Below are positions 5,333 through 32,059 of a DNA stretch of 64,000 nucleotides, one piece after another. Location: the IMG/VR virus record IMGVR_UViG_3300010430_000021; one strand, given 5' to 3'. A program made the translations under genes and the position numbers. Numbering within the stretch: position 1 is the first letter of the stretch; each line of letters begins with the position of its first letter. The notes below the pieces were generated by a model. It saw nothing but the letters and a program-made list of their open reading frames with translations, did no database searches and had not been told where the DNA came from. The DNA is from an uncultured virus (IMG/VR IMGVR_UViG_3300010430_000021) (taxonomy: Duplodnaviria > Heunggongvirae > Uroviricota > Caudoviricetes).

Positions 5333-5926
5333 CTACCTAAGCGCCTTGTAGGTCAAGTATCCGGCGACTGCCACACCAAGTAGTGCGATGCCCCCCGCGC
5401 CCGAGTAGAAGACTACGCCGCGGTCTTTGGCCCATTTGAGGGCGAGGGGGGCGTAGCTGGCCCCGGACATGAAGGTCTCGCCAGGGACGCCACGACCAAG
5501 GAGCTGCATCTTGGAGCCCCAACCCGTCGATGGCTTGCCGTACTTGGACTCGTAGGCGGCGTGAGCAGCGTCCGCAAACTTCACGTCAAAGTGAACGTGC
5601 GGCGCACTGTTCTTTGTGCCGGTGGTGCCCAGCGTCCCAATTTGCTGCCCGCGCTTCACACGGTCGCCTTGGGACACCATGTTCTTGTCGTTGTGCAGGT
5701 AGCGCGTGTGCATCCCGTTGCCGTGGTGGATGGCAATCCAGCGCCCGGCGAACGAGTTGTCCGTGTTGTCTACTCGAGCAATCACACCATCGGCAGCCGC
5801 GAGCACAGGAGAGCCCTTTGGGGCGGGGAAGTCCATGCCTTCGTGCCAGCCGTCGCGGTAATCGCGTGGTCGGCCCCAGCCGCTTGAGACAAATCCTCGT
5901 GGTGTTGGTGGTGTGAGTCGAATCAT
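5333..5926 (-). CDS. Peptidase M23 with C-terminal membrane anchor
   Basis: HEGMD (HxxxD), YLH and PHVHF (HxH) motifs; C-terminal GIALLGVAVAGYLTYKALR. Confidence 0.9.
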   Translation of the reverse strand: MIRLTPPTPRGFVSSGWGRPRDYRDGWHEGMDFPAPKGSPVLAAADGVIARVDNTDNSFAGRWIAIHHGNGMHTRYLHNDKNMVSQGDRVKRGQQIGTLGTTGTKNSAPHVHFDVKFADAAHAAYESKYGKPSTGWGSKMQLLGRGVPGETFMSGASYAPLALKWAKDRGVVFYSGAGGIALLGVAVAGYLTYKALR

Positions 5927-7417: not shown

Positions 7418-7939
7418 CTAGCGTCCTTTCCTAAGTAGAGTGAGGATGGAGCCAACCATGTTGGAAACTTGTTCCATCCAAGGGATGGGCTCGATGATGA
7501 AGCGCACCCGGTTGAGCGCGGTGGAAGAGATGAAAAGGCGATTCCCTTTCGCCAAAGAGAATTCCACTTCCACGTTGTTAGGGGGAAGCAAAATGCCTTT
7601 GCCCGATAGAGGGGGAGACACGTCTTCGCGTGTACCGATAGCCACAGGCCCCGCAGTCTCGAGCATGAGGCGCACGCGCACCCAGCTTTCCGCCTGGTAG
7701 AGAAGCTGAGAGCCTCCTACAGAGCCCGTGAGCACGGTAGAAATCTCAGTACGTCCCGAAGCTACAGGAACCGCGGGGGCACCTTCACGCGCGATTGCGG
7801 CGTTCTGCTTTTTGACCTTCTCAGCGCTAGGGATCGAGCGTCCCTGCTCGCCAGGCATTCGGAGCTCCGAGGCCATCTCTTTGATGTCCGGGTCCATCAA
7901 CCTGTTTTTCAATCGTCGTAGTCGTCGTCGTCCTGCCAT
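7418..7939 (-). CDS. Small beta-sandwich-like protein with basic N-terminus (possible penton/spike)
   Basis: Strand pattern (GILLPP...EFSLAKGNRLFI) similar to ORFs 37358 and 37841; AAGGA RBS. Confidence 0.6.
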   Translation of the reverse strand: MAGRRRLRRLKNRLMDPDIKEMASELRMPGEQGRSIPSAEKVKKQNAAIAREGAPAVPVASGRTEISTVLTGSVGGSQLLYQAESWVRVRLMLETAGPVAIGTREDVSPPLSGKGILLPPNNVEVEFSLAKGNRLFISSTALNRVRFIIEPIPWMEQVSNMVGSILTLLRKGR

Positions 7940-7949
7940 GGTGTTCCTT

Positions 7950-8681
7950 TTATGCGATGAGAATGAGTGCCGCTCCGAGCCCTAGTCCTATGACGGGCCC
8001 CCGCCAAGACGACGGCATGTACTGCGCAACGTTTGCGGGCAGAGTGTAGTCACCTGCCGGGGGTTTGGGAATCTTGACGGGAGACCCAATCCAAAAAGAG
8101 GGCTTCACAAGCTGGCCAATCTCCCAAAGCACGTCAATGACGTGGACGCGGAACCAGACTTTGCCCGCAGATTGTCGCCCAAGTGACATTCCGCCGACCC
8201 GATCCACGTAATCAACAAGCTGTCTCCAACTGTTGGCGCCGGATTTCTTGAGCAGGGTGCGCGTGCCTCCTGCCCCGATGGAGAAGGCGAGGCGGGCCAG
8301 CTTCCAGTTGTCCACGGTACCGAGGCCGATGGAAGGACGGGCAAGCCACATCTCCACAGCCATCATTTGGTACTCGATGCAACCAAGGAAGACGTTGTTC
8401 TCTTCGTTGAATCGAGAGCCCGCGTCGAGCCCTACCTTCGCAGGGAAGCTCTTGGTGATTTGGAAGATGCCCACCTCGCCGAGCGTCGAATCCCCTTGTG
8501 AGCTCATCTTCCCGCCCGACTCAAACGATGCGATGGCTGCGAGGAATCCGGCAGACATCCCGCCGCGGTACCTGTTGAGCAGAGGAGACAGACGCGAGTA
8601 AACTCCCGAGGCGCGTTCTGCGTTCCGGGGGATGTCGTTGATCTGTCGTTGGAGCTTAGATTTGTATTCGCTTGAAACCAC
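7950..8681 (-). CDS. Lytic transglycosylase (SLT-like) with C-terminal membrane anchor
   Basis: FLAAIASFESGG (catalytic E-S), GEVGIFQIT (GLMQ-like), NNVFLGCIEY; hydrophobic C-terminus. Confidence 0.75.
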   Translation of the reverse strand: MVSSEYKSKLQRQINDIPRNAERASGVYSRLSPLLNRYRGGMSAGFLAAIASFESGGKMSSQGDSTLGEVGIFQITKSFPAKVGLDAGSRFNEENNVFLGCIEYQMMAVEMWLARPSIGLGTVDNWKLARLAFSIGAGGTRTLLKKSGANSWRQLVDYVDRVGGMSLGRQSAGKVWFRVHVIDVLWEIGQLVKPSFWIGSPVKIPKPPAGDYTLPANVAQYMPSSWRGPVIGLGLGAALILIA

Positions 8682-16268: not shown

Positions 16269-16907
16269 ATGTCAAATCCAACCGAACAATCCACCAGCTT
16301 CCCAAAACTAGAGCGCTGCATCGCCGACATCAAGATCTGGCAGAAGGACGTTCGCGCAACGCCCGACGACAAGCTCGATCCCGCCGTCAAGAACCAGCTC
16401 GTCAACAACGTCGCGCCGTTCTTCTCGAGCTTGGTCACAGCCGTGAGCGAAGAGCTCGGAGAGCAGGCGGCCATTCTTGCAGACCAAGCAGACGGTCTCG
16501 ACATGCTCATCAACCAGGAGGGGGACATGCTCCAGCCTGAGATGGCGGGCAACCTCACGACCACGCTCATTCTGGGCATGGCAGTCATTGAGATTTTGAA
16601 GGTCGAGAACGTGAAGCTCTCGGACGACCTCAAGAACAAGAAGCTCCAAGATGCCATGAAGCACTACGAGCAAAACGCAACCATCATGCTCGACCAGATC
16701 GAGGCAGTCACACTAGAAGACGAGGAAGAAGATGACAACAACGACGACGGAAACGACGGAGACGAAGGTGGGCTTCATGGAGAAGGTGGAGACAGTGAAG
16801 AACATGACTCCAGCGGAGAAGGAAGCGTTAGCGATATTGCAGTCGCAGCCGGCGCAGACGGAGACGGAGACGGAGACGGAGACGACACCGACGCCGCCAC
16901 CGATTGA
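16269..16907 (+). CDS. Helical protein with very acidic C-terminal tail
   Basis: ATG 5 nt after the previous stop; D/E/G-rich tail. Confidence 0.7.
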   Translation: MSNPTEQSTSFPKLERCIADIKIWQKDVRATPDDKLDPAVKNQLVNNVAPFFSSLVTAVSEELGEQAAILADQADGLDMLINQEGDMLQPEMAGNLTTTLILGMAVIEILKVENVKLSDDLKNKKLQDAMKHYEQNATIMLDQIEAVTLEDEEEDDNNDDGNDGDEGGLHGEGGDSEEHDSSGEGSVSDIAVAAGADGDGDGDGDDTDAATD

Positions 16908-18678
16908 TCCAGAACCCGAAGTCGAGGAAGAGATCATCGAAGAGGTGGTCCCCGAAGCTGCACCCCCAAAGAAAGTGAAGGCAAAAATGCCAGTCATTGA
17001 ACGAGAAGCACCAGCGCCAACGCCACAAGCAATTTCCTCTATGCGGGAGGATGAGGCCGCAGACCTTCGATCGATGATCGAAGACATGGCCGCCGACAAG
17101 GGCTATGAAGTCCGCGTATACCGCACAAGCCCCAAGAAGTGGGTCAACCCCGATGGCAACACAGTAAGCATCGAAGGCTGGCAAGGCACTTTCGAGGAGT
17201 GGCAGACGGAAGAAGAGCTCAAGCAAATGTACGGAGGGGGAACCTTCCAACTGAAGATCTTCTCACCCGATGCAAAAGGCTCTCTGAGGTATTTCAAGAC
17301 CGCCTCAGTAAAAGTCTCAGGCTCCCCAAAGCACCCAGACATCATCAAAGAAGACGCGCTACCTCAGCCGCTCGACTTTGGGCATTCGATGCCCGCGGAG
17401 GACAACTCCCTTGGAGCGCAAGCGATGTCCACGATGCAGGCGTTGCTCGACAAGAAGCAAGAGAACACAGGGATGGACCCTGTGATGATCGAGCTCATCA
17501 CGGGACCGCTCAAAGCTCAGATCGAGTCCACCAACGCGACCATGCTCTCCTTGCAGCAAAGCATGGTCGAGAAAGACAGCAAGATTTTGGAACTCATCAC
17601 CCACAAGCCCGACACTTCTGAGAAGGACGGTCTTCTCAACAAGATGTTCGACACGGAAGCAAGCCGCTCGAATCATCTCCGCGCCACGCACGAGAGTGAG
17701 ATGCGGCAGATGCGAGAGAACGCTCGAGAGGACATCAAGCGTGCCGAAGATCGACACCGCGATGAGCTCCGCGACCGCACCGAGTCACACCGCCGAGAGA
17801 TTGACAGCTTGCAGCGGTCCAACGACAACATGATGGCCACGACCAAGATGGCCTACGAGTCCCAGATGCAGAGCCTCAAGGCTGAGATCACTCGGGCCCA
17901 GCTCGACCTCACCGAAGCTCGAGCGGAGCTCGGAGCTCTCAGGTTGAAGAAGGACAAGACTCTGATCGAGCAAGCGAGCGAATTGCAGCTCGTGGGCGAG
18001 TCATTAAAGAGTCTCGGAATCGGCGGGGCCAAAGACGACGACACCGACGATCGCAAGTGGTACGAGAAGCTCGTCGGCCAGGTTGTCGAGAACCCCGAGG
18101 GCGTTGCCCAAGTGGTCGGCATGGTCACGGGAGGGGGCAATCCAGCCCAACCGAACCCGCCACAGCAGTTCGCGCCGCCCCCGCAGCAACTCGAAGCGCC
18201 CGCGCCGCAAGCGCCGCAAGCGCCGCAAGCGCCACAGGAGGCCCAACAAGAGCGGGTCTACGACGTGGACGAGATTCCAATTGGCCAGCCGTTCCGCGGC
18301 GAAGACGGCGAGGTGTACGTCAAAGTGCCACCTGATGGGAGCATTGTGACTTACGCTCAGGCCGAGAAGATGGCACAGGAACTTGAGGCACAAGCTCAAG
18401 AAAATTCAGACGTTAAGAAGCCTTCCGAGACGGAAGTGAAGATGGCCATCTCCTTCATGGAGTCGGCGTTCACGGCGGGTACCGAGGCAGCTACATTTGC
18501 CGCTGGCGCGCGTTCTGCCATCCCTGGGGGCATTCTCGAGTATATCGAGAGTGTAGGTGTTGACACTTTCCTCAATGAAGTGGCAGTCTTGGACCAGAAT
18601 AGTCCACTGAGGAACCAAGCAGGCAGAACTTTCATGAGGGATGTCGCGAAGTTTCTTTTAGAGGGCATTCCGGGATAG
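16732..18678 (+). CDS. Large coiled-coil/low-complexity protein (possible scaffold or assembly factor)
   Basis: 648 aa, central heptad-rich region, Pro/Gln-rich linkers; no Walker A motif seen. Confidence 0.8.
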   Translation: MTTTTTETTETKVGFMEKVETVKNMTPAEKEALAILQSQPAQTETETETETTPTPPPIDPEPEVEEEIIEEVVPEAAPPKKVKAKMPVIEREAPAPTPQAISSMREDEAADLRSMIEDMAADKGYEVRVYRTSPKKWVNPDGNTVSIEGWQGTFEEWQTEEELKQMYGGGTFQLKIFSPDAKGSLRYFKTASVKVSGSPKHPDIIKEDALPQPLDFGHSMPAEDNSLGAQAMSTMQALLDKKQENTGMDPVMIELITGPLKAQIESTNATMLSLQQSMVEKDSKILELITHKPDTSEKDGLLNKMFDTEASRSNHLRATHESEMRQMRENAREDIKRAEDRHRDELRDRTESHRREIDSLQRSNDNMMATTKMAYESQMQSLKAEITRAQLDLTEARAELGALRLKKDKTLIEQASELQLVGESLKSLGIGGAKDDDTDDRKWYEKLVGQVVENPEGVAQVVGMVTGGGNPAQPNPPQQFAPPPQQLEAPAPQAPQAPQAPQEAQQERVYDVDEIPIGQPFRGEDGEVYVKVPPDGSIVTYAQAEKMAQELEAQAQENSDVKKPSETEVKMAISFMESAFTAGTEAATFAAGARSAIPGGILEYIESVGVDTFLNEVAVLDQNSPLRNQAGRTFMRDVAKFLLEGIPG

Positions 18679-18716: not shown

Positions 18717-19253
18717 TTGAAAGCACTAGGACACAGAGTAGATCTTGAAGCACCCTTCAAAGGGGCGCCTCAAACCGTTGCGCTCATCAAGAAGTACGCT
18801 CTTGAAGCGCAACGAGATCCACGAGTCCGACTGCTCGCGGAAGAGATTGTCAGTGGTCTCGGCTCAAAAGATTATTTGAGCGAGATCGCTGCGATCTACT
18901 ACTACGTTCTCAATCATACTCGCTACGCCAATGACCCTAGGACGGTGGAACTTGTTCGCCGGCCTGGGCGCATTGTTGCCGAGCTCGCCTCGGGAAAAAC
19001 CCCTAGCTTGGACTGTGACGATATGGTCACGTTCCAGGCTGCTCTGCTTTTGGCGCTAGGCCGAGAGGTACGCATCGTCACGATCGCGTTCCAGAAGGTC
19101 AAGTACCAAGGGCAGATTCAATACTCCCACGTCTACTTGCAGGCGAGGGAGCCTCGAACCGCACGCTGGCTCGTGCTTGATCCCGTAGCCGCCGAAGAAA
19201 TGCAGCAGATGCTCAATAGGGGCAAAGCTATCAAAATCTGGCCCCTGGCCTAA
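18717..19253 (+). CDS. Transglutaminase-like cysteine protease (putative virion maturation protease)
   Basis: LDCDD (Cys), SHVY (His), VLDP (Asp) triad; first gene of the membrane-protein cluster. Confidence 0.8.
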   Translation: MKALGHRVDLEAPFKGAPQTVALIKKYALEAQRDPRVRLLAEEIVSGLGSKDYLSEIAAIYYYVLNHTRYANDPRTVELVRRPGRIVAELASGKTPSLDCDDMVTFQAALLLALGREVRIVTIAFQKVKYQGQIQYSHVYLQAREPRTARWLVLDPVAAEEMQQMLNRGKAIKIWPLA

Positions 19254-19263
19254 AAGGAACACT

Positions 19264-20280
19264 ATGTCTTTCTACAACAAACCCTGGAACGCTGGATACG
19301 CACTGCCCGCTTACGCGGAAGCGGAAGATCCTTTGGTGCGCGGTAGCGCGAAGACAACTCCTTGGGCTCCCCGAGGCACCATCTCGAAAGTCCCCCCTGG
19401 CTCTAAGCTGGGCGGGTACGCCGTGCCTGCATACGTTCGTGCTGAGCCTGTAGGAAGCCAGGCGAAGACGACTCCTTGGTTGGCTCGAGGGACGTTCGAT
19501 GGCAACGTCACCAAGCTCAAGACGGGCCTGCCCTACTCCGAACATTCCCTAGCGAGCAACGGCCTTGGTGCTCTAGGAAGTCACAGCTCGCTTTCAGGCA
19601 ACACTGTCGCCGGTAGCTCGGTTGGCGGAAGCAACCCGATCGAGTCCTACGGACAGAAGGCCGCCGCGGCGATCCTCTTCGACTTCAAGAACATCCCTCT
19701 TGGTAAGAGGGACGAAGCGTTGCGCGAGCTCTTGGGACAAATCGACCCGAAGCTCTACAGCGCCGCCAAGAAAGCCATCAAGGAGCAGAAGGCCATGGGC
19801 CTCAAAGGTGAGAAGGCCGAGAAGGCTGGACTCGCTACGGCTTTCACTCACGGACTCACCAAAGAGTTCATGAAGCTCGGCAAGGGCCGCAAGCCTGTCG
19901 CGCCCGGCCTGAAAAACGGCCAGGTCGCTCTTGGAGCTCTCGTAGGCTTCGAGGCTCAGGCGGACAACTACCAAGACCTCGGGGGACTCTTGAGTGACAT
20001 CAAGAGCACTCTCAAGAAGATTGGCGGGTACGCCTGTGACGTGGCCACGCATCCCATCACTCCGATCGCCGCTGGCGCCGCTGGCGCGTACTACGGTGGC
20101 CCGCAAGGAGCATCCACAGCCACAGCAGGTGCCGGCGTCGCTGCCGCGGCCTGCTCCATTGGCAAACAACCTGCCCCGGGCCCTGCCTACGCTCCACAAG
20201 GCGGCGGTATGCCTGTCTGGGCGCTTCCTGCCATCATTGGCGGTGGTGCTCTTGCCCTTATCTTTGCACTGAAGAAATAG
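19264..20280 (+). CDS. Tail-anchored putative virion membrane protein
   Basis: Gly/Ala-rich with duplicated N-terminal motif; C-terminal TM + KK. Confidence 0.75.
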   Translation: MSFYNKPWNAGYALPAYAEAEDPLVRGSAKTTPWAPRGTISKVPPGSKLGGYAVPAYVRAEPVGSQAKTTPWLARGTFDGNVTKLKTGLPYSEHSLASNGLGALGSHSSLSGNTVAGSSVGGSNPIESYGQKAAAAILFDFKNIPLGKRDEALRELLGQIDPKLYSAAKKAIKEQKAMGLKGEKAEKAGLATAFTHGLTKEFMKLGKGRKPVAPGLKNGQVALGALVGFEAQADNYQDLGGLLSDIKSTLKKIGGYACDVATHPITPIAAGAAGAYYGGPQGASTATAGAGVAAAACSIGKQPAPGPAYAPQGGGMPVWALPAIIGGGALALIFALKK

Positions 20281-20281
20281 G

Positions 20282-20944
20282 ATGAGCCAAATGCAACGAC
20301 ATAACCATCAAGACCTCGGCTGGTGGTGGGAATCTGAGGACTACGGCGACGAGATTAAAAAGATCCGCGCTATTTCTGAAGGCTTCCGTGCTGTGCAACT
20401 ACCTGAGCAAATCCCGCTCTCAACAGCCAAGAGGATATTCACGGATGTTCTCCAGGCCGCGGGCGAGTTCACTCATGAGGTGGAGGTGGAGACCGGGAAG
20501 ACCGGGAACATCTTTGTCCACGAGCAGATCGCTGCCCGTGGGTTTAGTGTGATGCACGATGTTCAAAAGATGAACAGCAAGCTAATACCCATCATCCACA
20601 AGGCGATGGACGAAGGTGCCAGTATGGTGCCCTCGGGACAATTCAAGTACCAGGCAATCCTAATAACATCATCCATCGCCGCGTCCTATGAAGCGTTGGC
20701 AGAGATCCACGATGCGAAGCCTTGGTTCCTTCGTGGGGCTGGTGTGGATGCCGTCATCAAGTCACTCGTGAGCGCAGGGCGCGCGGTTCAGTTCGTTGCG
20801 GCCTATACGGTCGATCCTCTCAAGAACGCGCTCGACGCAGCCGACGACACCATGGCGAAGATGATCACCGTGCTCAAGTGGAGCTCCGTTGCAGGCGGAC
20901 TCTTCCTTCTATACAGAGCAATCGAGCCCAAGAAAGGCAAATAA
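20282..20944 (+). CDS. Tail-anchored putative virion membrane protein
   Basis: N-terminal QDLG; C-terminal TM + KKGK. Confidence 0.7.
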   Translation: MSQMQRHNHQDLGWWWESEDYGDEIKKIRAISEGFRAVQLPEQIPLSTAKRIFTDVLQAAGEFTHEVEVETGKTGNIFVHEQIAARGFSVMHDVQKMNSKLIPIIHKAMDEGASMVPSGQFKYQAILITSSIAASYEALAEIHDAKPWFLRGAGVDAVIKSLVSAGRAVQFVAAYTVDPLKNALDAADDTMAKMITVLKWSSVAGGLFLLYRAIEPKKGK

Positions 20945-20946
20945 CC

Positions 20947-21378
20947 ATGAGCAGCATCTACAGCGCACGTTCCATCGCCCTTTCTCTGGGCATGGGAGAG
21001 ACGCAAGCAACACTCTCCATCGGTCAGATGAACCGACGCCCGCGCGTGAGCGACCCCGACGCCGCATCTACTGTGCTCATCGTCAAAGCGATGCAGCGAG
21101 GACTCAACGTGATTGGTTGCGGCCTCAAAGAGACTGGACGCATCGACGACAGCACAGCCTCTTGTATGGTCGAAGTGTGCGGGCCTCTGTGGCAGAACAA
21201 GACCTGGCTCCACATTGGACAAGACATTCTTTGGGCCCAGGGCGAGGGTCGCAAAATCTCTCGAGGGAAAGCCCTTGAAGGTGTCGGGCACGACGGTCTC
21301 AGCGGAGGCAGCTTCGGAAGCAGCGCCGCAGCACTCGTTTCCATCATCGCACTCGCATACTTCTCGTTCAGAAAATAG
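20947..21378 (+). CDS. Tail-anchored protein with peptidoglycan-binding-like domain
   Basis: VKAMQRGLN...LKETGRIDDST pattern; C-terminal TM + RK. Confidence 0.6.
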   Translation: MSSIYSARSIALSLGMGETQATLSIGQMNRRPRVSDPDAASTVLIVKAMQRGLNVIGCGLKETGRIDDSTASCMVEVCGPLWQNKTWLHIGQDILWAQGEGRKISRGKALEGVGHDGLSGGSFGSSAAALVSIIALAYFSFRK

Positions 21379-21386
21379 GAAACACT

Positions 21387-21872
21387 ATGAGCTACAAAGT
21401 AGTCAGCGGCGTGTGCCGCCCACAAACATTCGAGGCCCTTGAGCAGTACAAAGGCGTTCAGCGAGAGACAAACCGTTTGCTCGACATGCAGGACGCGAAG
21501 TTGCTGTACGTCGATGGCCGCATCGGGGACAAGACCCGACTAGCCATCAACAAGGTTCTGGGCACGTCGTTCAAGACCTGTTCTGAGATTGCCGATCGCA
21601 TCGCGACGCTTTGGGTTAGCTTGAAGGGTCTCGCCGAGAGCAGCAATGCCGCGGTGGTCGCCGATCCCGAGAGCCCCGTGCGAAGCGTGATTTCTCCCCC
21701 CTCGAAGTACAACGCGGCGACCAACAAGGTTGTCCACCCAAGCATCTCGACGGCGGGAATCGCGGGCGTCCCTCTTTGGGCGATTGCGTTGTTCGGCGCG
21801 GGTGGCGCGTACTACTTCAGAAAAACCAAGAGCGGCAAGAAGCAGTGGAAGTCGCTCACAGGAGGCTTCTAA
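21387..21872 (+). CDS. Tail-anchored protein with peptidoglycan-binding-like domain
   Basis: VQRETNR...LYVDGRIGDKTRLAI pattern; C-terminal TM + basic tail. Confidence 0.65.
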   Translation: MSYKVVSGVCRPQTFEALEQYKGVQRETNRLLDMQDAKLLYVDGRIGDKTRLAINKVLGTSFKTCSEIADRIATLWVSLKGLAESSNAAVVADPESPVRSVISPPSKYNAATNKVVHPSISTAGIAGVPLWAIALFGAGGAYYFRKTKSGKKQWKSLTGGF

Positions 21873-22213
21873 TGCAATACTACTATCACGCAGCCTACCC
21901 TCGTAAGTACAATGCAGAGACGCGCACCATGCGACCCGAGAACTCGAGGGCCGCAGAAGCGAAGTCCCTTGGTTCCCTCCACAATAAAGGCCATGGTTCT
22001 CTCGGTAGCCGTTATGTCGGCCCTGTCTCTGCACAAGACCTCGGCAAAGAGAGCTACTTCGGAGCTCAAAGTTTGTCGGGTCAGAACTACTTCGGAGGAC
22101 AAGACCTAGGCAACCTTCTCTCGAACAACGAGAAGCGTCTTGTTGCTATTGGAGTGATCGGCATCGTCGGCTACTTCGCATTCGGCAAGAAGATCAAGAA
22201 AGCCCTCAAGTAA
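21872..22213 (+). CDS. Tail-anchored protein with repeated (QD/S)LG motifs
   Basis: TAATG coupling at both ends; C-terminal TM + KKIKK. Confidence 0.7.
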   Translation: MQYYYHAAYPRKYNAETRTMRPENSRAAEAKSLGSLHNKGHGSLGSRYVGPVSAQDLGKESYFGAQSLSGQNYFGGQDLGNLLSNNEKRLVAIGVIGIVGYFAFGKKIKKALK

Positions 22214-22533
22214 TGCGCTACTCCGTTTGGAATCAAGGTGCTCGTCAATACGATTATTACGAGACACCCGAAGTGCAGCTCGGTGCAAACACGCCGTCGC
22301 CGAAACACATCCGTTCGCAAGACCTCGGAGTGCCGGTCGATCGAGCGGGTTGGCCTCTTCCTGGCTCCGCACGGAAGGTCGGCAGTGGCGCGATGGCACA
22401 AGGTCGTATAGCATCGCGCCGCGGCGTCGGTTTGCCGCTTGGAGCAATCCGAATGGATAGCAATATGATCGGCATGGTGGGTCTCGGCGTTGCCGCGTTC
22501 CTACTTTGGAAAAACGGCTTTCTTAAAGCATGA
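22213..22533 (+). CDS. Tail-anchored putative virion protein
   Basis: C-terminal IGMVGLGVAAFLLWK. Confidence 0.7.
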   Translation: MRYSVWNQGARQYDYYETPEVQLGANTPSPKHIRSQDLGVPVDRAGWPLPGSARKVGSGAMAQGRIASRRGVGLPLGAIRMDSNMIGMVGLGVAAFLLWKNGFLKA

Positions 22534-23620: not shown

Positions 23621-24844
23621 TTGCCCATTTACTATGTAAATCCTGCGAAACGCAGAGCAGCGACGAAAAAGCGCACGACCGTAAAACGTGCCGCCGCCAC
23701 GGGTTCGATCAAACGAGTTTCCACAAGCTCGAAGAAGGCTTCAAAGAAGAAGCCCTCTGGTAAGAAAACGGCGGCTCGAAAGCCCGCCACAACCAAACCC
23801 AAGCAGGGGAAAAAGAAAATGGCGAAGAAACTGTACGGAGCCGCTGCCGCTGCCCGCAAAAAGCGGCTGGCAAAACTCAAGCGCAAGCGGAGCGCAAAGA
23901 AAAATCCTTCTTCCAAGCGGAAGAGCACCACCAAGAGCCGTAGCACGGCAGCGAAGAAAGCAGCAGCAACGCGCAAGCGTAAAGCAGCAGCCCGAAGCGC
24001 AGCAGCTAAGAAGGCCGCCCGCACGCGCAAGCGTCGCGCAGGTGCGAAAAAGAATCCAGCCCGCAAGCGGAAGCGTACAGCAGTGAAGCGACGCAAGAGC
24101 GTGGCCAAGCGACGCACGAAGCGCAAGAGCTACAAGCGCAACCCAGCACCGAAGCGTCGGAAGCTGTCGGCTGCCGCTCGCAAGCGCCGCAAGTCGTATG
24201 GCGGAAAGCGCTCGAGCCGCGGGATGAAGAGCATCTCCAAGGCACGACGATCCATCAAGGCCGCTCGTCGGCGCGGCGGACTGTCTGGTTCCTTCGTCAA
24301 GAAGTACAAGATGAAGACGAACCCAGGCGGAATGAAGCAGGCAATCATGACTGCTCTCCCCATCGCCGGATCGTTCTACGTGTCCAAGCTGGCAGCCAAC
24401 AAGCTCGGAGACATCCCAGCCGTTGGTAACGTCCTCAGCAAGCTCAACGTCGGTGGTTACGACCTCGGCAAGCCTGCTCTTCAGGGACTCATGCTGGCCG
24501 GTGCTCACTACGGCACCAAAAAAGGCGCTCTCGCGAAGCACCGCACGGGCCTCATGCTCGGCACCGCTCTCGCTTTCGTCGATTCCTTGATTGCTACCTT
24601 CGCTCCAGCGGACGTGAAGAGCATGATCGGAATGCAGGGAGCTTCTCTCCCCGCAGCCACGGGCGAGTACGTCGCTTCGGGTGAGTACGTTGCTTCTAGC
24701 GAGTACGTCTCTACCGACGAGTACGTCTCGATGGACGGTCTCCACGAGATCCACGCCATCCATGGCATTGACGAAGAGCTCGGCGCAATCGAAGCAGGCG
24801 CCGACGTTGGAGTGAACAACGGAATCTTCGCCAACGGCTGGTAA
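23621..24844 (+). CDS. Histone H1-like Lys/Arg-rich core protein with hydrophobic C-terminal domain
   Basis: About 230 aa K/R/A/S-rich region with xxNP motifs, then amphipathic helices and EYV repeats; start may be TTG 23621 or ATG 23819. Confidence 0.8.
   Translation: MPIYYVNPAKRRAATKKRTTVKRAAATGSIKRVSTSSKKASKKKPSGKKTAARKPATTKPKQGKKKMAKKLYGAAAAARKKRLAKLKRKRSAKKNPSSKRKSTTKSRSTAAKKAAATRKRKAAARSAAAKKAARTRKRRAGAKKNPARKRKRTAVKRRKSVAKRRTKRKSYKRNPAPKRRKLSAAARKRRKSYGGKRSSRGMKSISKARRSIKAARRRGGLSGSFVKKYKMKTNPGGMKQAIMTALPIAGSFYVSKLAANKLGDIPAVGNVLSKLNVGGYDLGKPALQGLMLAGAHYGTKKGALAKHRTGLMLGTALAFVDSLIATFAPADVKSMIGMQGASLPAATGEYVASGEYVASSEYVSTDEYVSMDGLHEIHAIHGIDEELGAIEAGADVGVNNGIFANGW
24661..24730 (+). repeat. 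18-bp coding tandem repeat (xEYVxx x4)
   Basis: GAGTACGT core repeated four times at 18-bp period. Confidence 0.85.
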
Positions 24845-25029: not shown

Positions 25030-25593
25030 ATGCCAAGAATCCACGGAACCCGCGAACGACGACACCAGCCAATTTACGATAGCCTTCTGCGCACCACGGG
25101 TGCTCCGGCTACGACTCTTCAGCCAAGCACCAAGCTGTTCGGCAACGCCAACGTTGGCAACCTTTCCCTCACCAACCTCCAGGTCGCTGGACAGTTGGCA
25201 TCGGATCAAACCTACATCGTCATGGCACTTCGTTGCTTCATGTACTTCGTGGGTACCAACGCTACGGCTCTGTTCCAGCAAGTTGCTTCTCAGTTGACGT
25301 TCACCTTTACTCTTGGCGACAAGCCTCAGTTCGTTGCTCCAGCTTGGTACCTTCCAGCAGGTGGCGGCGTCTACGGCCCGAACGACTCGAGCAACGGTTG
25401 GCCTTCACAGGACGCAATTCTGAAACTGGCACGTCCTATCGTGATCCCAGTTCGACAGAACATCAGCGTCGACGCTCAGTTCTTCGCAGTCGGTTCGACT
25501 TCGGCCCTCACCACGATCAATGGTGCTGCCGGTGACGATCAGATGTCCGTGATCTACATGATCGACGGCATCCAGACTCGCGACGTTCAGTAG
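25030..25593 (+). CDS. Putative major capsid protein 1 (single jelly-roll-like)
   Basis: GGAG RBS, strong codon bias, structured leader and downstream terminator; beta-rich with QPIYD...TNLQVAGQLA motif. Fold is inferred. Confidence 0.55.
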   Translation: MPRIHGTRERRHQPIYDSLLRTTGAPATTLQPSTKLFGNANVGNLSLTNLQVAGQLASDQTYIVMALRCFMYFVGTNATALFQQVASQLTFTFTLGDKPQFVAPAWYLPAGGGVYGPNDSSNGWPSQDAILKLARPIVIPVRQNISVDAQFFAVGSTSALTTINGAAGDDQMSVIYMIDGIQTRDVQ

Positions 25594-25749: not shown

Positions 25750-26358
25750 ATGAACGCTCAACAAGTAATCCGTCAGCTTGTCGCTGGCCAAAACGAGCTC
25801 AAGGCTCAATTCAAGCTCCTTCTCGCCAGTGAGGATGGACCGCGCAGCATCACGGAAGAGATTGACGCTCTCCCTGGCCGCCGCATCTTCTACAACCTGT
25901 CGGGACGCCAGAGCTTCACGATCGCTCAGCTTGCCCAGCGCAACGAGCCCGTGTCCTTCACAGTTTCGCAAGACGGCCCATTCGTCATGACGCACTACCC
26001 GCTCGTCATGTGGAAGCCAAACTTGCCGTCCACCGCCGACAACCTCGGCAAGTGGTCGCCGGTCGCTAGCTGGCCCGTCCCTGTTCAGCAGGAGACGAAC
26101 CAAGACTCGATCAACCTCTCCTACGAATTCTTTGATGGCGGCGCACAACGCGCTTTCAACAACGAACTCGCTGCGCCGCTCTTCTCGCGGCCCGACAACC
26201 TGGCACCGCTCCCCGTGCCTACGCTGTTCGCCCCCAACGCGAACGTCCAATTCTTCCCCACCTACGAGGACATCGAGTTCGCCGCAGGTGCAACCGTCGC
26301 AACGACGGGTGGGCAGTTGGTTGTCACCCTTCCCGGCTACCGAATCGTACAACTCTAG
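25750..26358 (+). CDS. Putative capsid protein 2 (single jelly-roll-like)
   Basis: GGAG RBS; 202 aa beta-rich (VSQDGPFVMTH...PVPTLFAPNANVQF...VVTLPGYR). Fold is inferred. Confidence 0.5.
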   Translation: MNAQQVIRQLVAGQNELKAQFKLLLASEDGPRSITEEIDALPGRRIFYNLSGRQSFTIAQLAQRNEPVSFTVSQDGPFVMTHYPLVMWKPNLPSTADNLGKWSPVASWPVPVQQETNQDSINLSYEFFDGGAQRAFNNELAAPLFSRPDNLAPLPVPTLFAPNANVQFFPTYEDIEFAAGATVATTGGQLVVTLPGYRIVQL

Positions 26359-26368: not shown

Positions 26369-26992
26369 ATGCAAGCCCTCTACAACGAGGGTGCGATGGG
26401 GGATGCGAAAGTCGTAGCCCCAGTCACGCCCGCAGAAAAATCGAAGGCCGAGAAGCGCATCAAGTCGATGCGTCGCAAGCTCACGAAGTGGATCAAGGCT
26501 CGTCAAATCAACGACGAGGCAGCCATGGGAAAGCGGAAGGCGAAAGTCCCCGCCGCTGTGCTTGCGAAGACGCTCCCCCTCGCTCGAGATTGGAAGCTCG
26601 AGCAGCGTCTTGCTGTTCAGCTTCACGCGCTGTTGTCCGAAGTCATGGACGCATCGCAACTCCCTAACCCGGACATCTCCAAAGACCCCAACGCAGCCGT
26701 CAAGCTCGCTCAGATTGCCATCAGTGGCAAGCTGGGAGGCGAAGCGGTCTCTCCATCTCCACAAGGCATCATCTGGCTCTGGCCCGTCGTTGTCGTTGTG
26801 GGCATGGTGATGTTCACCATCATGGGCAAAATCTCGTCCGACGCGGACTTGGCAGAGCTCAAAGAGATGAATCGCTGCAAAGAGACCGGCGCTTGTACCG
26901 ACGAGGGCTTCTGGCTCAAGATGGCAGGCATCGCGCTCGTAGGCTGGATTGCCTGGGACAAACTGGGAGTCAAAAAGGCGTTCAAGAAATAA
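26369..26992 (+). CDS. Putative virion membrane protein (2 TM)
   Basis: AGGAG RBS; IIWLWPVVVVVGMVMF and FWLKMAGIALVGWIAW + KKAFKK. Confidence 0.75.
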   Translation: MQALYNEGAMGDAKVVAPVTPAEKSKAEKRIKSMRRKLTKWIKARQINDEAAMGKRKAKVPAAVLAKTLPLARDWKLEQRLAVQLHALLSEVMDASQLPNPDISKDPNAAVKLAQIAISGKLGGEAVSPSPQGIIWLWPVVVVVGMVMFTIMGKISSDADLAELKEMNRCKETGACTDEGFWLKMAGIALVGWIAWDKLGVKKAFKK

Positions 26993-27124
26993 CAACACAA
27001 GGAAGGAAGTAGTCCCTCAAGCCACCCGCCGATTGGGGTTGGTAGCACAGAAAAAAACCGGAGAGCTGGGCCGCAGATTTTGATCGGCGGGCGACTTGAG
27101 GGACTACTTTTAGAGGACACGACG

Positions 27125-27442
27125 ATGGCATACACAGCAACAGGCGGAATACTGTCTACAGCAAGCGCTGCCAAAGCCGTCGCGCTTGATCCCTACCTTC
27201 CTCAAGTTGTGGACCTCGTGCTCAAGCTCGAGGCCATCGAGAAGGGCGAGAGCTCAAGCTCGTCGAGCTCGAGCTCACCAATCAGCTCGAGCAACGGAGT
27301 CGGCCTCCGCAACGTCGTTGGCCCTCTCAAGACTTTCGTGGCGATCCAAGAGAAGCCTTGGATCTTGCCCGTTGCCGTCGTCGGCATCGTGGGAACCATC
27401 TTCGCCGCTGGCTACTTCACTAGGAAGATTCAGAAGGGCTAG
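27125..27442 (+). CDS. Tail-anchored putative virion protein
   Basis: GAGG RBS; Ser-rich linker; C-terminal TM + RK. Confidence 0.7.
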   Translation: MAYTATGGILSTASAAKAVALDPYLPQVVDLVLKLEAIEKGESSSSSSSSSPISSSNGVGLRNVVGPLKTFVAIQEKPWILPVAVVGIVGTIFAAGYFTRKIQKG

Positions 27443-27445
27443 AAG

Positions 27446-27931
27446 ATGGGTTACCTGTACAACAAACCACAGGGCCTAGGCCGCATCTCACAAAGTCTGA
27501 AGGACCGCTTTCAGATCAAGATGTACCAACAGCCCGGCGCCGAAGTAGGCGAGCGCGGTCAAGTTGCGCTTGGTCCAGGCAAGGACGCTGCGAAGAACGC
27601 AGAAGCCCTCGCCAAAATCAAAGCTGCATGGCCTCGTTGCGGCGACGCCCACAAGTATCTCTACACGTTCAAGAACGGACGGACGATCTGCACCCAAGGA
27701 TGGCGCAACGAATTCTACGTTGACCAAATGATGGGTCGCATTCCGCATGAGAGCTTCTTCGATCCCGTCAAGCGCAAAGAAGCGGGCATGAACCCGAACG
27801 CCGTCATTCAAGACAGCGGCCCCCCTGCCGGCCCAAAAGCCCCAGGACTCCTTAGCCATCCCTGGATGCTTCCAGGCGTTGCCGTCCTAGGAGGGCTCAC
27901 AATCTTCATCCTCGCGCAGAGGAGCCGCTAG
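27446..27931 (+). CDS. Tail-anchored putative virion protein (shares a domain with 28835..29806)
   Basis: KAAWPRC...YLYTFKNGRTICT vs KANWPRC...YLYKFKDGRQKCT; C-terminal TM. Confidence 0.75.
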   Translation: MGYLYNKPQGLGRISQSLKDRFQIKMYQQPGAEVGERGQVALGPGKDAAKNAEALAKIKAAWPRCGDAHKYLYTFKNGRTICTQGWRNEFYVDQMMGRIPHESFFDPVKRKEAGMNPNAVIQDSGPPAGPKAPGLLSHPWMLPGVAVLGGLTIFILAQRSR

Positions 27932-28248
27932 TGGGCTACATCAAAACAGGCACGCCGCTCCCACAGGACGGCGTGTGGGGCACGATCAAGGGCGCTGTGA
28001 AAGGGGCCTACGATTACGTCACCGACACAGGAAGCGGTGGCGGTAGTGGCTCGTTGGACAGCAAGCTCAAGAAAGCTGCCGCAGCCGCTCGCGAGAAAGC
28101 AGCGATTGCCAAAGCAGCGCAAGAGCAGCAAGCCGCTTTGGTGCAGCAACGCAACGCAACCCAACAGAAGATGGTGTTGGCGAGCGGCGCTGTGATTGGT
28201 TTTGCCGGCATCCTGCTTCTCATCGTGAAGAAAAAGAGGAGTAAGTAA
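27931..28248 (+). CDS. Tail-anchored putative virion protein
   Basis: C-terminal TM + KKKRSK. Confidence 0.7.
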   Translation: MGYIKTGTPLPQDGVWGTIKGAVKGAYDYVTDTGSGGGSGSLDSKLKKAAAAAREKAAIAKAAQEQQAALVQQRNATQQKMVLASGAVIGFAGILLLIVKKKRSK

Positions 28249-28835
28249 TGCCACCAGCACTCGCAGTAACCACAGCGCCCGCGCCGTCCCCTAGCAGCAA
28301 ATGCCCGAAGGGCGAGCGTTGGGATGACATCGATCGAGTGTGCGTACCTTTGAAGGTGACGAAGCCTTCCTCGATCCTTCGAGGGCGTATCTCGCCACGT
28401 CTCTTTTCTGGGATTTCAAAGAGCGCCGTCGTGTCGAAGCCACCTCCAAGCAAGGGTCTACCGTCCACCGACGAGATGATCAGCGGGGGAAGGAAGCCTC
28501 CAGGCAACCCGTGGCCTCCTAAGAGCTCGACTCCTGAGCCGACTCCCGAGCCGACCCCTGAACCGACTCCTGAGCCCGTGCCCGAGCCAGCGCCCGCACC
28601 GACAACACAATCGGTCCCTGCCCCTCCTAGCGGCGGTGGCGCTTCATATCAGATGCCTTCGAGCCAGCCCGCGTCCGTCAACCCGGACGATTACTTGCTC
28701 GATCCTATCGACCTGCCTCAGACTTCTCACACAGCCGCGCCTTCCCAAGCGTCGGGAGGCTCGAGCGCGTTGAACAATCCCTTGCTGCTACTTGCTGGCG
28801 GCGCACTCATTGCCTACTTGGTGCTCAAGAAATAA
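28248..28835 (+). CDS. Pro-rich tail-anchored protein
   Basis: (TPEP)n linker; C-terminal TM + KK. Confidence 0.7.
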   Translation: MPPALAVTTAPAPSPSSKCPKGERWDDIDRVCVPLKVTKPSSILRGRISPRLFSGISKSAVVSKPPPSKGLPSTDEMISGGRKPPGNPWPPKSSTPEPTPEPTPEPTPEPVPEPAPAPTTQSVPAPPSGGGASYQMPSSQPASVNPDDYLLDPIDLPQTSHTAAPSQASGGSSALNNPLLLLAGGALIAYLVLKK

Positions 28836-29806
28836 TGCCCTACTTCAAAAAACAGAAGCCACTAGCAGGCCCGCTCGATTTACTGAAGAACAAGTACGCG
28901 ATGACTCTCGTTACGTCGCCGACCAGTCAATCGGTCGCGACTGAACAATCAATCGCATTCGCCAAGACGAAAGCGAATTGGCCGCGCTGCACGCTCACCA
29001 TCCGTGAGCAGAACGGCACCACCAGAAAAGTCACGGGCTACCTCTACAAATTCAAGGACGGTCGCCAGAAATGTACTCGCGATTGGGATCAGGGTGCTTA
29101 CGCCCTGGTTGTCAAAGGCGAAGTACCGCCAATTCCCGTGCCCGACCTTTCTCAAGTCCAAAGAGGCACGCTCAAGCACTTCGAGTGGTTGTGTAAGGCG
29201 CAAGGAACCGTCCCCCAGGACAAGGGCGTTCAGCAAGTCCGCATGGGCTTCGATCGCATGGGCGAAGGCTGGGAGTGGTGGCCACGCACCGATAGCAAAG
29301 GCCGAAGCTGGAGAGGGTACTCGAGCGCACCAAAGCCCCGAGTGTTGCCCCAGAACATCATGCCGTGCGCTCGGTACATTCAGAGGAACTCTGGCTCCGA
29401 CGCGAGCAAGCCCGGGTACCGCAACGCTTGGACATCTCGAGCCTACATCTACTCGGTAGATGTTCAAGGTCAAGCGGCCAAGAACGTAGAAGAGCATCGC
29501 CCTTCCGCTTGCGATGACCCTGCCAACGGCATCCCACCGGAGCTTCGTGCTGCGTGCAAAGCCGCGCTCGCGCGGAACGACGGCACGAGCATCAACAGTT
29601 TCAAGAAGGACATCGGCAAGAAGAGCCAGGAAGAGATCGAAGAGATCATCTACGGCTCTGGTGCTGGCGGTCCTGGCGGCGCACCACAATCGACCTACCC
29701 GGGCGCGGGTGCCGGCGCCGGCATCATGTCCAATCCTGTCGTTGTCTACGGTGGCATCGCTGCCGTGGTCGGCGTTGTTGCGCTCATTGCGTTGAGGAAG
29801 AAGTAG
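28835..29806 (+). CDS. Tail-anchored putative virion protein
   Basis: C-terminal VVVYGGIAAVVGVVALIAL + RKK. Confidence 0.75.
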   Translation: MPYFKKQKPLAGPLDLLKNKYAMTLVTSPTSQSVATEQSIAFAKTKANWPRCTLTIREQNGTTRKVTGYLYKFKDGRQKCTRDWDQGAYALVVKGEVPPIPVPDLSQVQRGTLKHFEWLCKAQGTVPQDKGVQQVRMGFDRMGEGWEWWPRTDSKGRSWRGYSSAPKPRVLPQNIMPCARYIQRNSGSDASKPGYRNAWTSRAYIYSVDVQGQAAKNVEEHRPSACDDPANGIPPELRAACKAALARNDGTSINSFKKDIGKKSQEEIEEIIYGSGAGGPGGAPQSTYPGAGAGAGIMSNPVVVYGGIAAVVGVVALIALRKK

Positions 29807-30112
29807 ATGCTCACTGACGATTATTTGAACTACAAGGCCGACTACGACGCCGAGCAGCGTGGTGGGTACGAAGGATCTAAGAAGCCTTCGGGCCCTGGCC
29901 CTATTGAGATGCTCTTCAACTTCATCGAGCATTTGGGAATCAAGTTTGAAGAAGCGATGATCGATCCCAGGGTTGTCGCTGCCCTCAAATTAGCGGGCGT
30001 GAAAGCCGAGGAGCTCCGAGCAGAGCAGGCCAAGCGCAAACAAAAGAACAACCTGATGTTGTGGGGAGGGGCCGCTTTGCTTGTTGGCTACCTCGCCCTG
30101 AGAAAGAAATAA
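29807..30112 (+). CDS. Tail-anchored putative virion protein
   Basis: C-terminal LMLWGGAALLVGYLAL + RKK. Confidence 0.7.
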   Translation: MLTDDYLNYKADYDAEQRGGYEGSKKPSGPGPIEMLFNFIEHLGIKFEEAMIDPRVVAALKLAGVKAEELRAEQAKRKQKNNLMLWGGAALLVGYLALRKK

Positions 30113-30114
30113 CC

Positions 30115-30456
30115 ATGAGCAACTACGTCAAATCATCCCTAGGAGCGTCGGAGTCCTTCAAGAACAACTACCAATGGAACTCCCAAGGCGTTTGCATCGA
30201 GCAAAGCACCGGCAAGCCGTACCCCGGCGACCAGAAGCTCAGCAATTGCTACGGCTTTCACGGACCACCACCTTCGGGCACCAAAGGGGTTGTAAATTTC
30301 CTCACAGGAAAGGCCCAAGAGCTCATTGGAGGCTTCCTTCGCCCTCAGACGACCAATCTGCCTCAAGCAACTCACTCGACCTCGAGCCTTGTTTTGCCGG
30401 CTGTGATCGTGGTTGGAGGGGTCGGACTGCTTCTCATCCTGAAGAAGAAGAAGTAA
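30115..30456 (+). CDS. Tail-anchored putative virion protein
   Basis: C-terminal LVLPAVIVVGGVGLLLIL + KKKK. Confidence 0.7.
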   Translation: MSNYVKSSLGASESFKNNYQWNSQGVCIEQSTGKPYPGDQKLSNCYGFHGPPPSGTKGVVNFLTGKAQELIGGFLRPQTTNLPQATHSTSSLVLPAVIVVGGVGLLLILKKKK

Positions 30457-30466
30457 GCTCCGGCCC

Positions 30467-30952
30467 ATGCAAGCCAAGAAAAAAGAGATATTCCAGATGG
30501 CTGGGGACCAAAGCAGGGGCGTGACCTCTGGTGCGAACCTCACCAACTCTGCGATCTGTCATCCAGTTGTACTCTACCGCGGGCGCGGCATGGAGCGCCT
30601 TCTCACTTTGGACGTGTTCGCAATGCCGGGCACCCCAATGTACGCGGTAGTCTACTGCCCCCTTTGTCAAACGCGCGATCCTGAGAACAAGTTGAACCGC
30701 TCTCTCACGATCAAAGAGGACAACAAGAAGATCGACCTCGATCTGAAAGCAATTCCATCCATCCCTGGGTTCACGACCTCGGAGCTCGTCCAAGAACTCG
30801 GCTTGCAAAGCAAGGACGAGCTCCGGGGGCGTATTTCTATCGAGCCCTTCGGATGCACCTGGGAGGAAGACCCTGAACTGAGGCGAGGCTTCGGGTTTTC
30901 ATGCTGCAACTGGAAAGTTGCAATCACCAACAACATCGCTAGGGACGTTTAA
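30467..30952 (+). CDS. Putative zinc-binding protein
   Basis: YCPLC and FGC...SCCNW. Confidence 0.65.
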   Translation: MQAKKKEIFQMAGDQSRGVTSGANLTNSAICHPVVLYRGRGMERLLTLDVFAMPGTPMYAVVYCPLCQTRDPENKLNRSLTIKEDNKKIDLDLKAIPSIPGFTTSELVQELGLQSKDELRGRISIEPFGCTWEEDPELRRGFGFSCCNWKVAITNNIARDV

Positions 30953-30954
30953 CA

Positions 30955-31551
30955 ATGGCACTCAAAAATATGATCAAGCTCAAGGACAAAGTGACCTTTG
31001 GGCGTTCCGGCGATGTGAAGCGCAAAGGTACAGTCATCCAACTCAACCCGAAGACGGCGCATGTCAAGTGCTCGAATGGGGACGTGATGGCTGTGACCTA
31101 CAACCTGATCCAGAAGACAACCGCCCGCTTGGAGCGCAAGGGTAAAAAGCCCTCCAACAGACCGCGCAACATGACGGGCCAACCTGGTGAAGTGAGCAGT
31201 AAGAAAGCCCTAGAGCGATGGTCAATCAAGGATTTGACCCACTGGCTTTACGTTGCTGGCGTCGGTGTGAAGCCAGGCACTAAGAAAAGCACACTCGTGA
31301 ATTCCGTATGGACACGGATGCGTAGGGGCAAGGCGAAGAAGAACCCGTCGCAACGCACAACTGCCCACCCCCCTGGAGTGTCAACCCCTAGGAAGAACAC
31401 CTACGCGCATTGGCTCTTGGGGCAGAACAAGACCCAACTCAAAAAGCTGGACAAGGCGTATGAAGTCCTCCTTAAAGGGAGCGGCAAGGGACTCAGCGGG
31501 CTCAAAGCCAAGCACACAGAGGTCAAGAAAGAGCTCCGCAAGAGGAAGTAA
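30955..31551 (+). CDS. Basic protein with SH3/KOW-like N-terminus and KKNP motif
   Basis: KDKVTF...GTVIQLNPKTAHVK; very Lys-rich. Confidence 0.65.
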   Translation: MALKNMIKLKDKVTFGRSGDVKRKGTVIQLNPKTAHVKCSNGDVMAVTYNLIQKTTARLERKGKKPSNRPRNMTGQPGEVSSKKALERWSIKDLTHWLYVAGVGVKPGTKKSTLVNSVWTRMRRGKAKKNPSQRTTAHPPGVSTPRKNTYAHWLLGQNKTQLKKLDKAYEVLLKGSGKGLSGLKAKHTEVKKELRKRK

Positions 31552-31799
31552 TGGCCTACGTCAAAGTCCATAACGCGCTAGGGGTGACGCGAGAGCAGCA
31601 AGAAGTTCTCATCGCCATCCCCGAAGCACAGCTCAAAAACCTCTCAGCAGAGGAACGGCTCAATCTCGTCTTGCGTAGGCAGGAAGTGAAAGCCACCGAG
31701 AGCTCTGCGCGTTGGGATGCCATCTCCACGTTTGTCACTGTCGCGGTACCCATCGCGGCATTCTTCGGCATCTCTTGGGCCGCGAAAGGTAGATCATGA
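31551..31799 (+). CDS. Small tail-anchored protein
   Basis: MAYV start; C-terminal TM. Confidence 0.65.
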   Translation: MAYVKVHNALGVTREQQEVLIAIPEAQLKNLSAEERLNLVLRRQEVKATESSARWDAISTFVTVAVPIAAFFGISWAAKGRS

Positions 31800-32059
31800 A
31801 ACTCTTACTCATCCTAGCCGCCGCTGGCGGCGTTTACGCCGTCACACGCAAGAAGGCTCCGGCCCTCGATCCAATGCCGAAGCGCAAACCAGGAGGGTTC
31901 TACCTTCCTCAACTCACAACATCCGGTGGCCTGTCTCAATCGGGTGAGGAGATCTTGAAAGATCCCTCCAACCTCGAAGGATATTTCTCCACGAGCGGCT
32001 ACTTCTCAACAGGTGCCTGTTGCTCAGGCTGCGCCCACGGGCGACCCTGCAACAGCTAA
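31796..32059 (+). CDS. Small protein with N-terminal TM and Cys-rich C-terminus
   Basis: MKLLLILAAAGGVYAV; GYFS repeat; CCSGC...PC. Confidence 0.6.
   Translation: MKLLLILAAAGGVYAVTRKKAPALDPMPKRKPGGFYLPQLTTSGGLSQSGEEILKDPSNLEGYFSTSGYFSTGACCSGCAHGRPCNS

Follow-up and report, generated by a model that had tools for sequence, protein, structure and literature searches.

The adenovirus protease (AVP) is a packaged cysteine protease with the catalytic residues His54, Glu71 and Cys122 that cuts many precursors at (M/I/L)XGG-X or (M/I/L)XGX-G (PMC4246237), and vaccinia core proteins undergo Ala-Gly-X processing, again at a short Gly motif in virion precursors (PMC4837287). Among cellular enzymes, LapG and the lasso-peptide leader peptidases (C96) are proteases of the transglutaminase fold with a Cys-His-Asp triad; LapG cuts between two Ala, releasing an anchored protein, and C96 removes a leader. 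The poxvirus enzyme I7L belongs to the adenovirus-protease clan. We know of no maturation protease in the membrane-containing tailless viruses of bacteria, and our literature search found none of the transglutaminase fold for them. Here we analyze a stretch of 64,000 nucleotides (the window), part of a contig of about 75 kb from an uncultured virus (IMG/VR record IMGVR_UViG_3300010430_000021), in which open reading frame (ORF) 18717 encodes a transglutaminase-fold enzyme next to tail-anchored membrane proteins that carry Leu-Gly (LG) sites. An earlier note on this DNA had taken the enzyme, together with the tetrapeptide QDLG repeated in its neighbors, for a possible adenovirus-style maturation system.

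We lean, a little better than evenly, towards reading ORF 18717 as a packaged virion maturation protease that cuts after L/M-G. This rests on the fold and triad of the enzyme, the enrichment and position of the motif, co-occurrence, enzyme fusions, and the structural annotation of a homologue in the cultured phage SSIP-1; from these we infer the proteolysis, the bond cut, its timing and the topology. The literature search, which left most subscription papers outside its range, found no description of this system.

The comparison with adenovirus holds as an analogy but not as a family relationship. The pattern [LM]x[GSA][LM]G, which covers (M/I/L)XGX-G, is enriched in relatives of the window (44 vs 6.7), whereas none of the five QDLG sites of the window itself fits the AVP consensus, and the enzyme has the order Cys100-His138-Asp155 on another fold, which places it outside the adenovirus protease family. 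Since the virus is one of bacteria, the proposed substrates would be its tail-anchored membrane proteins; neither pVIc nor a DNA cofactor is known here, and the sole pointer to packaging of the enzyme is the structural note on its SSIP-1 homologue, gp34. The motif also differs from that of vaccinia in the hydrophobic residue that precedes Gly.

A transglutaminase-fold enzyme with an invariant triad

ORF 18717 is a member of the Transglutaminase-like superfamily (PF01841) by profile, fold and Cys-His-Asp triad. The Pfam Transglut_core profile was matched with an E of 2.9e-5 and 24.7 bits, above the curated cut-off of 23, and C100, H138 and D155 are invariant across 52 aligned homologues drawn from the best 120 of 562 matches, so that the stand-alone Cys-His-Asp enzyme (DCDD/HVY/LDP) of the earlier note is borne out. 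The predicted structure has a predicted local distance difference test score (pLDDT) of 89, and its closest structure is 3kd4 (Z 14.8, root-mean-square deviation [rmsd] 2.8, 147 residues aligned). LapG is matched with a Z of 7.8 (rmsd 4.5, 133 aligned) and PeiP with 8.0. Because LapG and the lasso leader peptidases set a precedent, proteolysis is plausible for this fold, although these are cellular enzymes with dedicated substrates and other motifs.

More specific assignments were not obtained. No match to the PF06035 (BTLCP/LapG) profile was listed for ORF 18717 at E 0.1, although one distant enzyme fusion matched it weakly (E 0.009), and no Peptidase_C93 match was listed. A profile search of PDB sequences with the ORF 18717 family gave no matches at E 1, and PHROGs holds no family for the ORF. 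We set aside a reading as an endolysin like PeiW/PeiP (Z about 8): the protein has neither a signal nor a domain for wall binding, and three other ORFs of the window (1850, 5333 and 7950) were read from sequence as apparent lysins.

A short L/M-G motif in the anchored proteins of related viruses

The motif was examined in 213 tail-anchored proteins from 49 related loci, with the window and a near-identical 1.3-kb contig (L005) set aside; gene calls came from a custom script that, in the window, found all 43 of the curated stops. Outside the anchor, LG is the most enriched dipeptide of these proteins (421 vs 273), with L/M at −3, G/S at −1 and D/A after it. When one protein per cluster was counted, the observed/expected ratio of LG was 1.5 in tail-anchored proteins and 1.1 in minus-strand (opposite-strand) proteins. 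The motif is also enriched by position: [GSA][LM]G lies within the first ~32 residues in 52 of 159 proteins (shuffled 11.9, maximum 24) and directly before the anchor in 24 (shuffled 10.3, maximum 20). Overall, the motif closes short leaders, separates domains or directly precedes anchors. The typical leader begins M-x-Y and continues with a few, often basic, residues up to the motif. When the four complete relatives and the window were pooled, LG reached 127 vs 98 in anchored proteins and 537 vs 544 in the rest; single genomes are too small to pass this test individually.

The 299 motif sites use 110 different 9-mers and follow background codon use, and the family motif is therefore a feature of the protein. 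In the polyprotein-like family of ORF 19264, 30 proteins join domains A and B and 16 have them apart; 34 of 36 proteins have [LM]G after domain B, a count made without a shuffle control. Judged from these sequences, what related viruses conserve is a motif at the protein level, (small)-[L/M]-G-(A/D/S).

Enzyme fusions and the cultured relative SSIP-1

The enzyme family is large, with 960 clusters at E up to 1e-10 and 3450 at E 0.001. Among the best 150 of the latter, the catalytic Cys is kept in 139 representatives and falls in a gap in 7 more, and the triad is kept in most. The enzyme is fused to the ORF 22213 domain in 15 of the 150, and 20 fusions end in a C-terminal anchor. In 15 of these 20, [GSA][LMVIF]G occurs at most 35 residues past the catalytic domain, compared with 5.9 in shuffled sequences.

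Among 50,697 phage records, the only cultured match to the enzyme is gp34 of SSIP-1 (two records of one phage; E 4e-7, profile E 2.8e-19), with the Cys, His and Asp intact. Judged by its length of 304 residues, it is probably also the top BFVD match. The GenBank note on gp34 reads 'structural protein' and gives no function, and the protein is laid out as enzyme, RGMG, linker and anchor. Directly upstream, ORF33 is homologous to ORF 16732 (E 2.3e-8), and the C-terminus of gp43 matches the ORF 22530 family, so that the two viruses share a virion module (gp33, gp34 and gp43-like genes). In SSIP-1, too, the enzyme gene is followed by anchored proteins with G[LM]G, and N-P motifs are present; 4 of 10 anchored proteins contain G[LM]G (p about 0.02), and the structural proteins gp37 and gp53 have it close to the N-terminus. 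SSIP-1 contains a membrane and two types of capsid protein (PMC6356626, PMC5332951) and is unclassified at NCBI. It differs from the virus studied here in that gp34 is membrane-anchored whereas ORF 18717 is without an anchor, in its genome of 43.8 kb compared with about 75 kb, and in its Walker-A structural protein gp40. Our literature search found no paper linking SSIP-1 to a transglutaminase, and PMC5894146 contains no passage on 'transglut' or 'protease'.

Taken together, the enrichment and position of the motif in relatives, the motif-bordered enzyme fusions and the SSIP-1 homologue annotated as structural support the view that the enzyme and an LG-type motif are functionally linked. The earlier note had inferred that LG is the site at which the enzyme cleaves or cross-links, and its interpretation is supported in part, by this link.

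QDLG is a local spelling of the motif

The earlier note had counted QDLG five times in four neighbors of the enzyme (19264, 20282, twice in 21872, and 22213), and a six-frame count confirmed exactly five in the window, at 19972, 20309, 22034, 22100 and 22318. The seven other LG sites that it listed (NGLGALG, KSLGS, PQGLG, SSLGA, NALGV, DGLGA and MGLGA) are all present. None of 2000 shuffles of six proteins gave any 4-mer at least five times in at least four proteins, and locally the QDLG cluster is thus beyond chance; when all 43 operon proteins were shuffled, 5% reached that count for a 4-mer of four different residues. Enrichment of LG over the broad region from 19 to 44 kb, which had been put forward as a test, was not seen (59 observed and 58.5 shuffled, compared with 32 and 36.8 from 44 to 64 kb). 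LG is enriched solely in the six proteins (19 vs 10.9, p 0.006), a count that includes the post hoc QDLG sites.

In homologues, LG is generally kept but QD varies: QDLG is found in 16 of 36 homologues of 19264 and in 2 of 20 of 22213. The corresponding site of 19264 reads EDLG, HDLG, QGLG, VGLG and similar elsewhere, and NGLG is present in 36 of 36. In the 22213 family, Gly is invariant in 20 of 20 both at the QDLG site and at the second LG before the anchor, and relatives of 20282 have mostly different basic leaders with an LG ending at the same aligned place. QDLG does not occur at all in the 213 tail-anchored proteins of the more distant loci, and six other loci have favorite spellings of their own, e.g., AGLG or RGLG, in three proteins each. 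By comparison of these homologues, QDLG is the favored spelling of the window's lineage, and QD is not a determinant.

The spelling has a DNA side as well. One 11-nucleotide word is common to the five QDLG copies (four exact, one with a single change), and a 33-nucleotide tandem duplication (an 11-residue repeat) inside 21872 holds two of the copies. The first 8 nucleotides are identical in all five QDL, which occurs in 0.4% of synonymous recodings, or in 1.2% when the tandem pair counts once and the sites are four. The word also occurs out of frame at 21198 and 21572, with 21530 noted as well, and 7 of its 10 plus-strand copies lie within 2.4 kb. The QDLG spelling may have spread by local copying, and a nucleic-acid role is also conceivable. 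Four marine-sediment runs gave contigs that match the stretch piecewise; no variant was listed, at the QDLG sites or elsewhere, and no RNA dataset was listed as carrying the stretch.

Proposed maturation and its alternatives

We propose that membrane and core proteins of many unrelated kinds begin as precursors with a (small)-[L/M]-G-(A/D/S) site. In some the site would close a short M-x-Y leader, often a basic one; in others it would separate two domains or directly precede the anchor. Precursors with this tag would collect at the internal membrane of a tailless bacterial virus, where the packaged enzyme would cut them, most likely after Gly, with a hydrophobic P2 and Gly at P1. Hydrophobic P2 and Gly P1 suit papain-like folds. 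Cutting before Gly, as in the adenovirus XGX-G form, is a possible alternative. Leaders would thus be removed and domains freed from their anchors, and enzymes fused to an anchor could release themselves at the motif likewise.

Several observations weigh against this proposal. The model of ORF 18717 resembles animal transglutaminases (Z 10-10.7) more closely than LapG, LG is flat over 19-44 kb as a whole, and plus-strand proteins not called tail-anchored are likewise enriched in LG (1.27). The LG count in tail-anchored proteins exceeds the shuffle maximum in none of the five single genomes, strict [LM]G is found in just 10 of the 20 fusion linkers (shuffled 6.5, p 0.06), and in SSIP-1 the narrow G[LM]G is enriched but the broad pattern is not. 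At the level of single sites, 4 of 36 homologues have S, H or N in place of the Gly in the QDLG of 19264, and the LG of the 22213 site sits within a conserved domain and may be structural. No complete genome without the enzyme turned up in which co-loss could be looked for.

The motif could instead be a tag for docking or sorting, in which the motif and the M-x-Y start bind a capsid protein or scaffold and recruit dozens of anchored proteins to the viral membrane, uncut, while the enzyme acts elsewhere. We regard this as unlikely, though it deserves serious consideration: M-x-Y starts are concentrated in tail-anchored proteins (in the window and four complete relatives taken together, 30 of 100, compared with 15 of 457 among the remaining proteins), the tandem pentapeptide-like motif repeats and the six-residue repeats of the core protein resemble multivalent binding arrays, and one site lies within a conserved domain. 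A docking tag leaves unexplained why, in fused enzymes, the motif borders the catalytic domain, and why it stands at borders where relatives have separate genes. Docking and cutting can also coexist, as in adenovirus pVI (PMC4246237), and docking followed by cutting would combine such a tag with cleavage by ORF 18717. Rather improbable, in our view, is a cross-linker or transpeptidase that makes a thioester with the protein at the motif or close to it and then passes the protein on to Lys or another amine, knitting membrane proteins to the shell. The best named structural matches after 3kd4 are transglutaminase 3 (Z 10.7), factor XIII (10.3) and transglutaminase 2 (10.2), QDLG contains Gln, and the tails are Lys-rich; but function does not follow from a shared fold, the tails of many relatives are Arg-rich, and Gln is not part of the family motif. 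Around LG there is no enrichment of Gln, and homologous sites differ in it. A conserved Gln acyl donor is thus lacking, and cross-linking at the motif Gln is unlikely. Least probable of all is that the QDLG cluster is a DNA- or RNA-level repeat (CAAGACCT), arising from local copying or serving as a nucleic-acid binding site, with the other LG an ordinary Gly-rich linker unrelated to the enzyme. The shared first 8 nucleotides, the out-of-frame copies and their clustering agree with it, but the motif of the relatives has background codons and is enriched over composition and by position, and related loci contain few copies of the word (19 in 837 kb). A repeat could account for the QD spelling but not for the family motif.

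If cutting at L/M-G is true, proteolytic maturation would extend to this lineage by convergence, the unannotated structural protein of SSIP-1 would gain a function, and mature virion proteins could be predicted from sequence. Because SSIP-1 is cultured, the claim is directly testable. The enzyme family tracks an undescribed group of viruses of roughly 75-86 kb. A broader picture, which we offer tentatively and at somewhat less than an even chance, is that of a very widespread lineage of tailless membrane viruses of bacteria in which one peptide code (M-x-Y leader plus L/M-G) sorts dozens of anchored proteins into the virion and is then cut by a transglutaminase-fold protease, itself frequently an anchored precursor with the tag. 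Maturation in the style of adenoviruses and poxviruses would then have been invented independently here, with a spelling that drifts by lineage and a second, basic-N-P code on the DNA-facing parts.

Virion genes, packaging and host

This is probably a tailless virus that contains a membrane and builds its capsid from jelly-roll proteins. The model of the capsid candidate 25030 has a Z of 7.0 to a calicivirus capsid and 6.2 to SPV1, and the call is tentative because the model is of low confidence (pLDDT 52). A Foldseek search with it gave no match at E 0.001, INPHARED held no match to the candidate, and none was confirmed in a single-sequence scan of viral contigs. The profiles of 25030 and 25750 have no similarity to each other and do not match the SSIP-1 capsid proteins gp45 and gp46. 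Searching with the 25030 protein led to 11 records; 9 of them carry the enzyme, and the remaining two are fragments (28% and 62% complete). Atlas searches with 25750 and 22213 returned unnamed clusters only.

The plus-strand run extends from 15883 to 43904 and includes 15 proteins called tail-anchored. The enzyme was said to open a membrane-protein operon; it heads the tail-anchored block, but the same-strand run begins three genes earlier. Related loci keep the order of three soluble genes, the enzyme, anchored proteins, a Lys/Arg-rich protein and two highly conserved proteins of ~200 residues. The features are collected in Table 1.

Table 1. Coordinates of the enzyme, its motif sites and the neighboring virion genes in the window
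Feature	Position	Strand	Description	Basis
ORF 18717	18717..19253	+	178 aa, transglutaminase-fold cysteine enzyme, stand-alone, without anchor	Profile, alignment, model
Catalytic codons of ORF 18717	C100 19014-19016; H138 19128-19130; D155 19179-19181	+		
16732	16732..18678	+	Large soluble coiled-coil protein, usually right before the enzyme; candidate scaffold	64 matches in related loci
19264	19264..20280	+	Tail-anchored: domain A, LG-rich linker, domain B, basic stretch with two LG, domain C, anchor	
NGLGALG site	19558..19578	+	Domain A/B border of 19264	
QDLG copy 1	19972..19983	+	Domain B/C border of 19264	
20282	20282..20944	+	Tail-anchored; short leader ending in QDLG (20309-20320)	
20947	20947..21378	+	Conserved tail-anchored protein, LGMG near N-terminus	
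21387	21387..21872	+	Tail-anchored, M-x-Y start, weak peptidoglycan-binding/chitinase-like match, without clear motif	
21872	21872..22213	+	Small, tail-anchored, largely LG sites: SLG twice; QDLG at 22034-22045 and 22100-22111	
22213	22213..22533	+	Conserved, tail-anchored; QDLG at 22318-22329 inside domain; LG at 22438-22443 between domain and anchor	
23621	23621..24844	+	Lys/Arg-rich putative core protein; four basic-N-P motifs; C-terminal G-E-Y-V repeats	
25030	25030..25593	+	Highly conserved, probable single jelly roll, putative major capsid protein 1 (tentative)	Model
25750	25750..26358	+	Highly conserved, 202 aa, putative second capsid protein	Position and size only
Second block	26369..32059	+	Mostly tail-anchored; several M-x-Y leaders ending AMG, GLG, SLG or ALG	

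No packaging ATPase of the A32 type (PF04665) was found in five complete relatives (G001 and G006-G009). There is no convincing Walker A in the window, about 11 kb of the genome lying outside it, and no Walker A pattern in the gene calls of relatives G006 or G007; packaging may proceed without an ATPase. ORFs 5333-5926, 7950-8681 and 1850-2596, all on the minus strand, were read from sequence as apparent M23-type peptidase and lytic-transglycosylase-like proteins with C-terminal anchors, plus an M15-like peptidase. They are likely virion entry and lysis enzymes, and because these genes appear to be wall-lytic, a bacterial host is indicated. Four matches lie in genome contigs, among them metagenome-assembled genome contigs of 80 kb and 68 kb, which may be binned viruses, and therefore no host is drawn from them.

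A basic-N-P motif (KKNP, RRNP, RENP) is repeated in the Lys/Arg-rich protein and on basic tails after anchors. It was seen in the window (23621-24844, 30955-31551 and, on the minus strand, 61184-62062), in the related loci L002, L014, L018 and L022, and in SSIP-1 gp41, gp43 and gp44; it is enriched in the SSIP-1 virion module (13 vs 5.4). The last copy marks the border to a conserved C-terminal domain, and the motif is possibly a second cut or DNA-binding code. The C-terminal part of ORF 23621 (~24650-24750) has six-residue G/S-E-Y-V-x-x repeats, and its relatives have G-D-Y-V-x-M-G versions, which contain the L/M-G motif.

Insertions were met in both the enzyme and the putative capsid gene. 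An intein-type insertion lies exactly at the catalytic Cys in 14 of the 150 distant enzyme representatives, and 10 of the 13 insertion-bearing enzymes scanned gave Pfam Hint, intein or LAGLIDADG matches, mostly under the cut-off. At the related locus L092 the enzyme has 486 residues and probably contains an intein. The putative capsid gene is interrupted in L092 (9148-10576) and L035 (16847-17703), and in L092 a LAGLIDADG-like ORF inside it suggests an intron.

A zinc metalloprotease-like ORF (HEMGH) with an N-terminal hydrophobic segment lies at 48141-48773 on the minus strand; an HEMGH-type motif was not found in three of four complete relatives. A weak homologue of ORF 18717 (E 2e-5), found with the gp34 and P0230 queries, is encoded by Geoglobus acetivorans pleomorphic virus 1 (BK065156.1, ~7776-8147), hinting at a use of the enzyme in other enveloped viruses. 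Finally, an unrelated HExxH protein (52967-53575, minus strand) ends in ten residues nearly the same as those of the capsid candidate 25030, with different codons, and this C-terminus is possibly a capsid-tail mimic or targeting tag.

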